Shown here piece after piece: positions 27,965 through 43,071 of a stretch of DNA of 47,466 nucleotides (its first letter is position 1; each line of letters starts with the position of its first letter). Source of the stretch: an uncultured Candidatus Saccharibacteria bacterium (GTDB taxonomy: Bacteria > Patescibacteriota > Minisyncoccia > UBA6257 > 2-01-FULL-56-20); assembly GCA_964568535.1 (NCBI GenBank), contig CAZMPQ010000002.1, positions 1 to 47,466 of the forward strand, given 5' to 3'. Position numbers and translations under genes: made by a program. A model generated the notes under the pieces. The model worked only from the letters and a program-made list of their open reading frames with translations. It was not told the origin of the DNA and did no database searches.

Positions 27965-27965
27965 C

Positions 27966-28092
27966 GGGGAGGATTGAACGGGAAAGGGGTCGGGAAAACG
28001 GGAGTTTTCCCGTGGCGGAAGTTGGGAACCGATGGGTTCCCAAGAGCCCCGCCGTGGCGGGGCGACGTGAAATCCTCCCCAACGGCTCAAAA
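27966..28092 (+). ncRNA. tRNA-trailing structured element T1 (candidate novel RNA / miniature element)
   Basis: The 5' end is the exact reverse complement of the tRNA T-arm. The 3' end is a 22-nt direct repeat of the tRNA 3' end. Three internal hairpins. Homologous to 42752-42910 (minus) and 35513-35656. Confidence 0.5.
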
Positions 28093-35471: not shown

Positions 35472-35510
35472 CGATCCTACCCTCGCGGTAGGATCGATTT
35501 GCTTTTGCGC
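35472..35510 (+). terminator. terminator after tRNA-Val
   Basis: CGATCCTACC ctcgc GGTAGGATCG ATTTGCTTTT. Confidence 0.65.
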
Positions 35511-35512
35511 AC

Positions 35513-35656
35513 GGGGATTCGAACAGCGGAGGGGGTCGGGGAACCGCGACCGGTTCCCTGTGTAGGAATGAGCGAAGCGGACTCAAAACCGAGGGTTTTG
35601 AGAGAGTGGCTTGCTGAGTAGCGAGCCATGACGTTCGATTCCTCCAGGACGCACCC
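35513..35656 (+). ncRNA. tRNA-trailing structured element T2
   Basis: GGGGATTCGAAC...GGGGGTCGGGGAACC..GGTTCCC.. hairpins ..TGACGTTCGATTCCTCCAGGACGCACC. Same block order as T1/T3. Confidence 0.45.
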
Positions 35657-35668
35657 TGGTTTGCTACA

Positions 35669-41478: not shown

Positions 41479-42747
41479 ATGACGACCCTTATCGTCGGGA
41501 TGTTGATGAAGGACCAAGCGGTGCTTGTTGTCCGCTGGCTCCTGAAGCATCTGGCCAAAGCGACCATCTGGCGCTATCGGCCGGGCATCATTGCGGTTAC
41601 GGGAAGTGTGGGAAAGACGTCAACGAAATACGCCATCGGTGCGGTGCTTGCGGCGGACCGCACCGTGCGCATCTCGCGCGGCAATTTCAATAACGAACTC
41701 GGCGTCTCGCTCGGTGTTTTGGGCGATTGGGGGAAGATAGCGGGATTGTTCTTCTGGCCGAAGGTCATCCTTGCCGGACTGTGGCGGCTCGTCGTGAAGA
41801 GCGATTATCCAGAACTCTTGATCCTTGAGTACGGCATCGACCGGCCGGGCGATATGAAGCGGCTTATCGGCATCGCAGAGCCGAACGTGAGCATCGTGAC
41901 CGCCATCGGGGACGTTCCCGCGCATGTGGAATTCTTTGAATCGCCGGAACAAGTGGCGCGCGAAAAGGCGCGCATCATCGAATGCCTGGAGCCGGCGAGT
42001 TTCGCGGTGCTCAATGGGGACAGCCCCGCCGCGCTTGATCTGCGGGAGCGGACGCGTGCGCGTGTCGTGACCTACGGGTTTGGCGCCGAGAATGATGTGC
42101 GCGTCACGGATTTTGAGAATCGCGTGGCGGACGGGCGGCCCATGGGCATTTCGTTCCGCATCGGCTATGCGGGGAACACGGTGCTCGTGGAGCTGGATGG
42201 CGTCTTTGGTCGCGCACATGCCTATGCCGCCGCCGCGGGCGCGGCGATGGGACTCGTGTTCGCCATGCCGCTCGGGAAGATCGCGGAAGCGCTTCGTTCG
42301 TACGATCCGCCGGGAGGCCGTATGGAACTTATTTCGGGTCCGAACGATACGCTTTTCCTAAATGATGCTTACAATGCAAGTCCTCTTTCCATGCAAGAAG
42401 CGCTCGCGACGCTCAAAGGCCTGCCGGCGAAACGGCGCATCGCGGTCTTGGGTGATATGTTGGAGATCGGCGCGTATGCAATGGACGAACACCGCGCGAT
42501 CGGCGAGCGCGCGGCGAAGTCTGCGAACCTACTCCTCACGGTCGGCCCGCGTGCCAAGTTCATTGCCGAAGGCGCGCGGAAGGCCGGCCTGCGGAAGAAT
42601 TACATTTTTTCATACGATACTGCAGAGGAGGCCATTCCGAAGCTCTCGGGGCTTTTGAAGCCCGGCGACCTCGCGCTCTTCAAGGCATCGCACGCGGTCG
42701 GGTTGGAGAAACTGGTGGAGATATTTACGAAGAATGCCGCGGATTGA
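41479..42747 (+). CDS. murF: UDP-N-acetylmuramoyl-tripeptide--D-alanyl-D-alanine ligase
   Basis: ...IIAVTGSVGKTSTK... Mur ligase P-loop and domain order. Start moved to 41479. Confidence 0.88.
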   Translation: MTTLIVGMLMKDQAVLVVRWLLKHLAKATIWRYRPGIIAVTGSVGKTSTKYAIGAVLAADRTVRISRGNFNNELGVSLGVLGDWGKIAGLFFWPKVILAGLWRLVVKSDYPELLILEYGIDRPGDMKRLIGIAEPNVSIVTAIGDVPAHVEFFESPEQVAREKARIIECLEPASFAVLNGDSPAALDLRERTRARVVTYGFGAENDVRVTDFENRVADGRPMGISFRIGYAGNTVLVELDGVFGRAHAYAAAAGAAMGLVFAMPLGKIAEALRSYDPPGGRMELISGPNDTLFLNDAYNASPLSMQEALATLKGLPAKRRIAVLGDMLEIGAYAMDEHRAIGERAAKSANLLLTVGPRAKFIAEGARKAGLRKNYIFSYDTAEEAIPKLSGLLKPGDLALFKASHAVGLEKLVEIFTKNAAD

Positions 42748-42751
42748 GTTC

Positions 42752-42910
42752 TTGTAGCGCCAATGGGATTGAACGTCGCTCGTCGCTATACAGCAACTCG
42801 CTCCCACGAACCCAGCGGTTCGTGTGCTCCGCCACGGGAAACCTCTCCTTCGACCCCGAGCTCAGGACCGAGGGGCCGGTTTCCCGACCCCATCCCCGTT
42901 CGCATCCCGT
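42752..42910 (-). ncRNA. tRNA-trailing structured element T3
   Basis: The minus-strand reading shares GGGGTCGGGAAAC, TTTCCCGTGGCGGAG, GAACCGCTGGGTTC and CGACGTTCAATCC blocks with T1. The distal end TTGTAGCGCCAATGGGATTGAAC (42752-42774) repeats the tRNA-Glu 3' end (42955-42978). Confidence 0.5.
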
Positions 42911-42919
42911 CGGCGGCAA

Positions 42920-42951
42920 GTAAAAACATCCCACGCGTGGGATGTTTTTAC
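42920..42951 (-). terminator. palindromic terminator after tRNA-Glu
   Basis: GTAAAAACATCCCA cgcg TGGGATGTTTTTAC. Confidence 0.75.
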
Positions 42952-42957
42952 TCGTTG

Positions 42958-43032
42958 TAGCGCCAACGGGATTCGAACCCGTGTTCCCGCCGTGAGAGGG
43001 CGGTGTCCTGGACCGGGCTAGACGATAGCGCC
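42958..43032 (-). tRNA. tRNA-Glu (anticodon CTC)
   Basis: Reverse complement: GGCGCTA acceptor (G-U at 1:72), GTCTAGCCCGGTCCAGGAC D-arm typical of tRNA-Glu, CCGCC-CTCTCAC-GGCGG, ACGGG-TTCGAAT-CCCGT. Confidence 0.88.
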
Positions 43033-43043
43033 GTGCGGAAATA

Positions 43044-43071
43044 ATCATAACGAAATTTCAGCATACAGCAA
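43044..43071 (-). promoter_or_regulatory. candidate promoter of tRNA-Glu (TTGCTG-16nt-TATGAT on minus strand)
   Basis: The reverse complement of 43066-43071 is TTGCTG; the reverse complement of 43044-43049 is TATGAT. Confidence 0.45.

Follow-up and report, generated by a model that had tools for sequence, protein, structure and literature searches.

Within the window, by which we mean the whole 47,466-nucleotide stretch of DNA analyzed herein, a tRNA-Glu(CUC) gene lies on the strand opposite to murF and is followed, on its own strand, by a terminator-like hairpin (hairpin S) and then by a structured element, hereafter T2, whose distal end adjoins the murF stop codon (Table 1). An earlier note, made by reading this DNA, had described the same order on the minus strand, together with the position of the element against murF, and each part was recovered where that note had placed it. 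The tRNA-Glu gene has no encoded CCA, its trailer being CAA. The box TATGATTAT on its upstream side, probably the -10 element of its promoter, was not picked up by a promoter scan, and boxes like it also stand 5′ of tRNA-Glu in two related genomes (L036 and L038) and of other tRNA genes in the window. Over 42752-42917, neither ARAGORN nor Rfam RF00005 called a tRNA, the tRNA-like part being the last 23 nt only, and the frames of at least 80 aa that run over the tRNA and the element were only mechanical (42725-43048 on the minus strand, and the end of murF on the plus strand).

Table 1. Features of T2 and its surroundings, with the two sister copies found in the window
Feature	Position	Strand	Basis or remark
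Sister copy T1, after tRNA-Thr(GGU)	27965-28092	plus	R1 95.3 bits; in seed
Sister copy T3, after tRNA-Val(CAC); different subtype	about 35506-35663	plus	R1 38.3 bits, E 1.5e-9; not in seed
murF stop codon TGA	42745-42747	plus	4 nt from base 42752 of the direct repeat
3′ junction (GAGCGAC + GTTCAAT) and direct repeat of the tRNA-Glu 3′ end	42752-42781	minus	sequence comparison
Helix 3, GTTGCT gtat AGCGAC	42782-42797	minus	family alignment; variable, optional in the family
Helix 2, CACGAACC gcug GGUUCGUG, conserved apex AACCGNNGGGTT	42805-42824	minus	model R1
Conserved single-stranded linker UGGCGGAGCA (family GUGGNGGA)	42825-42834	minus	family alignment
GGGGT, then helix 1 (CGGGAAACC / GGTTTCCCG)	42835-42891	minus	exact pattern match; model R1
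34-nt T2-specific insertion in the helix 1 loop, GGCCCCTCGGTCCTGAGCTCGGGGTCGAAGGAGA	42844-42877	minus	model R1
Purine-rich linker GGGGAT (family consensus GGGAAR)	42892-42897	minus	family alignments
Inverted arm GCCGCCGACGGGATGCGAAC, inverted copy of tRNA-Glu nt 53 to about 72	42898-42917	minus	
Terminator-like hairpin S, GTAAAAACATCCCA cgcg TGGGATGTTTTTAC	42920-42951	minus	read from sequence
Host tRNA-Glu(CUC)	42957/8-43032	minus	ARAGORN; Rfam tRNA 57.6 bits
TATGATTAT, likely -10 box of the tRNA-Glu promoter	43041-43049	minus	read from sequence

Anatomy of T2

Hairpin S, in which a 7-bp GC-rich stem followed by TTTTT can be recognized by eye, forms the tip of a long imperfect palindrome that begins in the T-loop of tRNA-Glu; specifically, a single hairpin (-51.0 kcal/mol, z -11.1) is predicted for the 81 nt that begin at tRNA nt 53 and close with the inverted arm. 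Where the earlier note had called a terminator, the hairpin GTAAAAACATCCCA/TGGGATGTTTTTAC is indeed present, and a simple terminator scan gave no call. Since the A-tract and the T-tract lengthen the stem, the word “terminator” is used for hairpin S as our own reading.

Past the hairpin, the GAAC of T2 starts 55 nt beyond the end of tRNA-Glu. The inverted T-arm had originally been delimited as 13 nt with one mismatch (GTTCGCATCCCGT, 42898-42910, against GTTCGAATCCCGT of the tRNA), which is correct for that segment and too short for the whole: the arm runs on to 42917, and 17/20 positions of GCCGCCGACGGGATGCGAAC, counted on the sequence, are complementary to the T-loop, the T-stem 3′ strand, and the acceptor 3′ strand. 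The core blocks GGGGTCGGGAAACC...GGTTTCCCGTGGCGGAG, CACGAACC-gct-GGGTTCGTG, and GTTGCT-gtat-AGCGAC that had been pointed out previously were all found, as was the direct copy of the tRNA 3′ end that closes the element. This repeat (42752-42774 versus 42955-42978) matches the tRNA at 22/24 positions, with one substitution and one 1-nt gap, and extends through the discriminator and the CAA.

The loop of helix 1 holds an insertion that is specific to T2. Its presence had been recognized before, with a length estimated at about 45 nt; it measures 34 nt, about 30 nt beyond the usual 4-nt loop. By itself, the insertion is predicted to form a hairpin (-12.8 kcal/mol) that would be able to extend helix 1, and it also offers a rival pairing with GGGGUCGG. 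Among the predicted folds of T2, the competing one (-83.0 kcal/mol) is 4.8 kcal/mol more stable than the consensus one (-78.2 kcal/mol), so T2 may be a weakened copy, or its insertion may be tolerated in the way of the larger insertions at two other loci (L062 and L043).

A large family of structured elements

The covariance model R1 (81 positions, two helices) was built from a seed of about 23-24 copies of other genomes plus T1, with T2 and T3 excluded; its first 14 positions are tRNA-derived arm, the other 67 are core, and none belongs to the direct repeat. In the 47-kb window, R1 makes three matches only and finds no further copy besides T1, T2, and T3. T2, which the earlier note had taken for a second copy of a T1-type element, scores 73.2 bits (E about 8e-20) over the full model length (42802-42911). 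Because T2 reaches 73 bits with a model built without it, its likeness to T1 lies in the core and not in the ends alone, and the possibility of a likeness limited to the tRNA-derived ends, raised in the earlier note itself, fails on the same score and on the 67/81 R1 positions that are core. The conserved blocks are kept despite the insertion, as had been stated, T2 aligning one block after another with T1, and likewise with 100+ copies of other genomes. Its core is 76% identical to that of T1 and 70% identical to that of T3 (with 65-76% of core positions common to the three copies in the window), and it is 97% identical to the core of a copy after tRNA-Arg(CCG) in another genome (L098). T2 carries all of the R1-family features, namely the core, a same-strand tRNA no more than about 160 nt upstream, the inverted arm, and the direct repeat. 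Our results show that the minus-strand segment 42752-42917 genuinely belongs to a very large family, whose structured members measure about 110-160 nt.

Two observations go beyond the earlier note: the third copy in the window, T3, and the very large, lineage-wide extent of the family. When one genome per species was scanned with the pattern GAAC-N6-7-GGGGTCGGGRAAMC, at least 120 loci were obtained, and almost all of them, among the matches listed, were labeled Patescibacteria (CPR), to which the family is thereby shown to be tied. The carrier groups listed comprise Saccharibacteria, Paceibacterota, and Jorgensen-, Yonath-, Moran-, Nomura-, Lipton-, and Berkelbacteria; judged by its MurF relatives, the window belongs to Patescibacteria as well. 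A same-strand tRNA ended at most 160 nt upstream in 87 of the 126 pattern matches listed, the remainder being accounted for by chance in GC-rich genomes, by a location at a contig end, or by the second unit of a tandem pair. Downstream, a copy of the tRNA's last 15 nt was present in 65 of the matches listed, with the direct repeat located 109-380 nt (typically 110-160) past the arm start. R1 found at least 116 copies in 100 loci of 8 kb, often several per locus. Host tRNAs include every amino-acid type, and the element is always on the tRNA strand; only a minority of tRNAs carry it. From the tRNA end to the GAAC, the spacing has a median of 55 nt, and the spacer usually consists of a hairpin between A- and T-runs.

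At the gathering and E-value thresholds of Rfam 15, only tRNA passes in the T2 region, and 15 related loci likewise gave tRNAs only, with no match to an Rfam ribozyme in either set. LOOT was considered for the T2 region and rejected as spurious: the match, at 21.5 bits, stays below the threshold of 46.4 and extends over the hairpin and the arm as well as the 3′ half of the tRNA, and the true LOOT RNA, which we observed in the related genome L035, differs in consensus. A full-text literature search found no description of such an element. The family is undescribed within Rfam 15 and the literature searched, and we know of no kind of element in which a conserved fold lies between an inverted and a direct end that both match the target. 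It was not found in 2.9 million viral contigs either. There, a loose two-block pattern gave 34 matches, all by chance within GC-rich coding DNA, and the specific pattern gave 5 chance matches, with 0 supported by the model and 0 near a tRNA.

Fold and covariation

Across the family, the order of parts is hairpin, inverted arm, GGGAAR linker, GGGGUC with helix 1, GUGGNGGA, helix 2, helix 3, junction, and direct repeat, within which the core comprises GAAC, 6-7 nt, GGGGUC, helix 1, GUGGNGGA, and helix 2 with the apex AACCGNNGGGUU. The junction before the direct repeat reads GUGAGAU or GUUCRAU, and helix 3 is missing in short members (e.g., L060, L066, L146, and L157). RNAalifold, applied to a MAFFT alignment of the whole element, recovered helix 1 only, because the variable parts misalign; the final structure was set by hand and the sequences were realigned with Infernal.

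In the alignment of the 116 copies, pairing holds for 96.8% of cells and compensatory change for 15/17 pairs, a combination that 0/500 shuffles reached and that collapses in shifted registers. Helix 1 is 98% paired, with compensatory change in 7/9 of its pairs (116 copies), and helix 2 has undergone such change in 8/8 pairs across the family. Conservation of the core over phylum-level distances includes its unpaired bases. Further, the identity of the last linker base follows that of the variable helix 1 pair, G going with G-C and A with A-U, and a second pair is followed in the same way by another linker base; as far as covariation can tell, both may represent base triples. The helices contain 33 G-U versus 18 A-C combinations, an excess that mildly favors the tRNA-sense strand.

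Ends matched to the neighboring tRNA

The two ends of the element were compared with the adjoining tRNA, position by position in tRNA numbering, for 69 copies (Table 2). Family-wide, the inverted arm corresponds to tRNA nt 53 to about 66, that is, to the T-loop and the T-stem 3′ strand, and the direct repeat corresponds to nt 60-74, with an identity of 0.86-0.99 and a sharp edge at nt 59/60. That the arm might instead repeat the T-stem 5′ strand directly was rejected, by 7 to 2 at non-Watson-Crick pairs and by 40 to 7 at the next base. In family members, the stretch that begins at tRNA nt 53 and ends with the arm forms a long imperfect hairpin (median 81 nt, 80% paired, z -8.9) that has the “terminator” at its tip.

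Table 2. Agreement of the element ends with the adjoining tRNA (n = 69 copies)
tRNA position	Arm complementary to own tRNA	Repeat identical to tRNA
nt 53-59	0.88-1.00 (variable nt 59: 0.91)	0.23-0.67
nt 60	0.94	0.86
nt 61-62	0.96, 0.90	0.90-0.93
nt 65	0.62	0.99
nt about 70	about 0.3	0.96
nt 74	0.19	0.96

The direct repeat is followed by CCA in 12/69 copies, compared with 8/69 for the tRNA genes themselves, and CCA after the repeat was therefore rejected as a sign of copying from mature tRNA. Repeats often have the same trailer as the tRNA gene.

Gain, loss, and variants

The tRNA-Glu gene that adjoins murF is a conserved neighbor in the clade, and the sequence behind it differs. The earlier note had proposed a look at murF orthologs in relatives, and those examined have a bare tRNA-Glu, an element of another subtype, or no tRNA-Glu at all, depending on the genome. 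In L159 (MurF 66%), tRNA-Glu is opposite to murF, as it is in the window, and is bare, its 3′ end overlapping the murF stop at the place where the window has the direct repeat. The remaining relatives with a tRNA-Glu have it on the same strand as murF: it is bare in L036 (MurF 82%) and L161 (MurF 60%), followed by a hairpin and an arm remnant GGAATCGAAC with the core absent in L160 (MurF 64%), followed by an other-subtype element of 44 bits, behind the same tRNA sequence, in L162 (MurF 56%, Liptonbacteria), and followed by an element of another subtype, with a different core, in L038 (MurF 82%). L035 (MurF 86%) lacks tRNA-Glu, and the LOOT RNA comes after its murF.

At the second site compared, L035 and L036 have the same tRNA-Val without T3, and the additional DNA that the window has there takes in the hairpin, which argues that the hairpin comes with the element. 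For T2, an origin of the terminator by fold-back of a native trailer was rejected; the native flank in L159 is murF itself, which indicates that the T2 hairpin arrived together with the element. These genome comparisons show that elements have evidently been gained and lost on short evolutionary scales.

Several variants of the layout exist. Two loci (L072 and L078) have tandem units with different cores behind one tRNA, truncated copies occur (L096), the arm has decayed beside a perfect direct repeat in L106 and L092, and copies without a terminator lie between tRNAs of one operon in L056, L059, and L071. An inverted arm was also found downstream of 11/101 tRNAs that lack this core, versus 1/101 in the upstream control; since what comes after these arms is a core of another, unrelated kind and then a direct repeat, the layout is common to several element families. 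A longer autonomous version, in which a gene would separate arm and repeat, was not found among the 120 loci listed, and none of the copies examined had a recombinase, transposase, or reverse transcriptase within or beside it. Metagenome contigs of close strains contained no empty-site or excision joints, only assembly breaks, which fall at the palindrome in related strains. T2 is covered at 100% identity by the window's own contigs in three runs. Among RNA runs, neither the window nor L099 was found, and in the one run for L084 coverage was limited to a tRNA.

At L062, the element seems to be a landing pad for defense islands. Two ORFs of the island there had no match in Pfam, PHROGs, or NCBIfam.

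Relation to known systems

By its features, the element is placed among tRNA 3′-end insertions or orphan structured motifs. At tRNA genes, a regenerated tRNA gene and a displaced fragment mark the ends of inserted DNA (Islander, PMC4383910). Like the islands and prophages that tyrosine integrases insert into tRNA genes (PMC4383910), the element sits at the tRNA 3′ end, leaves the tRNA gene intact, and has a displaced or duplicated 3′ fragment at its far end, with an identity block that runs from in or near the T-loop to the 3′ end. Unlike them, it has an insert of only about 130-200 nt, without integrase, cargo, or any gene, and it adds a conserved folded core, an extra inverted copy of the target, and the occurrence of one and the same core after many tRNAs.

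MITEs, which are gene-less transposable elements, resemble the element in being short, multi-copy, intergenic, and non-coding, with ends that pair together; they differ from it in that its terminal repeats are copied from each target, its “target duplication” is at least 15 nt, and its copies in one genome are old and divergent. A MITE assignment was rejected, given that the ends vary with the tRNA, that the repeat is 15-24 nt, and that the copies in the window share only 65-76% of the core. The IS200/IS605 elements have ends that are recognized in the form of single-strand hairpins, and their left flank pairs with an internal guide; palindrome-associated derivatives without genes of their own exist. 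To our knowledge, the tRNA-trailing element has no known transposase partner.

Integron attC and phage CTX attP offer a further parallel, as folded single-strand recombination sites in which structure is conserved above sequence and two inverted arms form a target-like duplex with an unpaired central bubble. In the present case, however, there is no integron integrase or dif-like target, and the arms imitate a tRNA gene. The core boxes of attC read RYYYAAC ... GTTRRRY; an attC identity for T2 was rejected, since neither its left end, TGCGAAC, nor its right end, GTTCAAT, fits these boxes. Trans-splicing group I ribozymes share the order of an antisense guide, a structured core, and a replacement 3′ sequence, and the layout agrees to the extent that the element's guide fits, with its 3′ half, the target sequence upstream of the junction and, with its 5′ half, the 3′ piece of the element itself. 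The resemblance is one of layout only, as the core of the element is about 90 nt, without group I helices or a conserved junction G-U. Finally, orphan Rfam motifs (LOOT, raiA, and ROOL) are likewise covarying, lineage-restricted, RNA-like structures, whereas the element matches no Rfam 15 family, is multi-copy and tied to tRNAs, and has target-specific ends.

Possible origins and functions

The reading that we consider the most likely, at about even odds on the comparisons available, is that the family is a mobile cassette without genes of its own, which would insert at tRNA 3′ ends and whose core would act as a folded single strand. The inserted unit would comprise the hairpin or terminator, the inverted arm, and the core, and the distal direct repeat would be the tRNA 3′ end, duplicated or displaced as with tRNA-integrated islands. 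The folded core would be used either as RNA or as single-stranded DNA of the tRNA-sense strand, its fold would be recognized by an enzyme encoded elsewhere, and the universal palindromic T-loop GTTCGAA would be the likely anchor. Near-identical cores occur after different tRNAs, each with fitting ends, so that the ends would have to be templated on the target at arrival or converted to it soon afterward. In favor of mobility are the presence, absence, or change of subtype behind the murF-linked tRNA-Glu of relatives, the lack of T3 behind tRNA-Val in L035 and L036, the bare tRNA end of L159 at the position of the direct repeat, the closeness of the T2 core to the L098 copy rather than to T1 and T3, the tandem and truncated units, and the recurrence of the layout with unrelated cores. 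Against a mobile cassette, the copies within a genome are old and divergent and their helices are perfect, which looks more like long-term selection on each copy than like a recent selfish burst; the core is conserved across phylum-level distances and may show tertiary covariation; and neither an enzyme nor a moving form nor an autonomous relative turned up, the family being absent from the 2.9 million viral contigs. We also know of no insertion mechanism by which the target would be copied in both inverted and direct orientation.

A serious rival, which we consider possible if somewhat unlikely, is a small RNA that is useful to the host and aimed at its own tRNA. Such an RNA would be transcribed by read-through or within tRNA operons, with its junction closed by arm and repeat; the 5′ arm would guide it to nt 53-65 of the cognate tRNA or pre-tRNA, the 3′ end would be a spare nt 60-74, and its role would lie in tRNA processing, quality control, modification, or 3′-end repair. 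Several aspects of the family suit this proposal. At nt 53-59, the arm is complementary to the tRNA (0.88-1.00) rather than to the repeat (0.23-0.61), the repeat equals the tRNA from nt 60 only, and arm pairing fades beyond nt 65, as if only the T-loop and T-stem were selected. The sequence and structure of the core are strongly conserved, with possible base triples, element and tRNA are always co-oriented, and the terminator-less copies of L056, L059, and L071, located as they are inside tRNA operons, must be transcribed. Yet a terminator-like hairpin precedes most copies, the distribution is patchy among close relatives with a minority of tRNAs having a copy, the arm is decayed beside a perfect repeat in L106 and L092, and the gain of a matched copy by a new tRNA is left without explanation. 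It is improbable, in our view, that the family consists of tRNA-specific guide-and-donor RNAs that join a tRNA to a spare 3′ end, or that insert themselves at the RNA level. Here, the 5′ arm would capture nt 53-59 of the cognate tRNA while its other half holds the element's copy of nt 60-74, both end to end on one splint, and the core or a bound protein would join them, such that a damaged tRNA 3′ end would be replaced; alternatively, the same geometry would drive insertion of the element's RNA into the tRNA.

A retroelement-like snap-back, in which the tRNA 3′ end would be copied, followed by a jump to the element RNA, fold-back, and entry by recombination with the tRNA gene, is a long shot. 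The symmetric ends are those expected of a snap-back copy, they fit whichever tRNA adjoins, and the copied stretch ends near nt 59/60, close to where retroviral reverse transcriptases stop on tRNA. The CCA counts given above (12/69 versus 8/69) give no sign of copying from mature tRNA, however, and repeats often have the gene's own trailer, no reverse transcriptase was seen nearby, and the inverted arm copies the entire T-loop to nt 53. Least credible, and given almost no weight here, is the view that T2 combines a terminator with a partly duplicated and decayed tRNA-Glu 3′ end, or that it arose as an assembly artifact at the palindrome. Assemblies of related strains do break at the palindrome, but the same core recurs at least 116 times, with compensatory changes, in independent assemblies of many studies, the window's contigs span the element at 100% identity in three runs, and tRNA finders make no tRNA call on the element; artifact or plain decay of T2 is excluded.

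Implications

Patescibacteria, whose genomes are tiny, account for a substantial part of bacterial diversity, and most of them have not been cultured. The presence of a conserved folded element after a sizeable fraction of the tRNA genes in such bacteria counts as a major genomic feature, one for which our searches turned up neither annotation nor description. Model R1 allows these regions to be annotated, and the element explains assembly breaks behind the tRNA genes of its carriers. If the guide-and-donor proposal were true, the family would be a natural device of guide, core, and replacement exon, placed beside tRNA genes in minimal genomes. If the element is instead a mobile cassette, its mode of movement would be one not yet described, in which the ends are rewritten to each target tRNA, and if it is a host RNA, it would point to a further layer of tRNA handling in reduced genomes.

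Variation in the murF/tRNA-Glu neighbourhood

Among close relatives, tRNA-Glu and its promoter are found in both orientations relative to murF, irrespective of the presence of the element (comparison of window 42957-43032 with the murF relatives L036, L038, and L159-L162). In the closest murF relative, L035, a LOOT RNA stands in place of tRNA-Glu after murF. The coreless hairpin and inverted-arm remnant in L160 look like a decayed element. In L038, an insert of approximately 180 nt splits the murF-linked tRNA-Glu at the anticodon loop, following CTCT; this insert has 19-bp terminal inverted repeats and itself contains a second, intact tRNA-Glu(CUC); behind the outer tRNA lies an element with a different core.

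Features in the window and in loci from other genomes
Feature	Locus	Position	Strand	Remark
T3, third element copy	Window	35506-35663	+	Behind tRNA-Val(CAC)
murF-linked tRNA-Glu interrupted by insert	L038	2990-3290	+	
LOOT RNA (RF03000, 88 bits)	L035	11680-11804	+	Occupies space after murF
Hairpin and inverted-arm remnant (CCCAATTTAGGAATCGAAC)	L160	4357-4420	+	No core; after bare tRNA-Glu
Hammerhead-like string (CUGAUGAGUCCAAAAGGACG)	L069	1-90	-	At contig end
Direct repeats, 97% identical, at both ends of 6.9-kb defence island	L062	353-747 and 7252-7801		

Core diversity and possible base triples

The window holds a further copy of the element, T3, whose subtype differs (AGCGGAG...GUGUAGGA); the same tRNA-Val in L035 and L036 lacks it. 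Unrelated cores (for example, GGCCGGAG...GAGGCCGCGUCCAG) were found behind tRNAs in L045, L067, L070 (two), L088, L090, L097, L099, and L119, in elements that follow the same plan: a hairpin, then an inverted T-arm, a core, and a direct repeat. The tRNA-trailing elements seem to comprise several families. In A4, the alignment of element copies, bases of the purine linker between the inverted arm and helix 1 covary with helix 1 base pairs, A with A-U and G with G-C (column 26 with 36:129 and column 23 with 39:126). This covariation, which was seen again in several subtypes, may reflect base triples. The hammerhead-like string in L069 lies within an element or just past it, and Rfam made no call on this string, which is cut by the contig end.

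Assembly breaks

Breaks occur at the hairpin (window 42923-42948) and at element cores in short-read assemblies of the window organism and its strains, as read from that interval and from the metagenome contigs of runs X1, X4, X6, and X7. CPR assemblies probably under-represent such elements.

Association with a defence island

The repeats that bound the L062 island are composed of a tRNA-Asn trailing element, with hairpin, arm, core, and partial repeat. Between them lie two unknown ORFs and genes for a GmrSD/HNH nuclease, an EcoRI-like methylase, an SDH protease, and AbiEii/AbiEi; no integrase was found. Islands may use the tRNA-trailing element as a landing pad.
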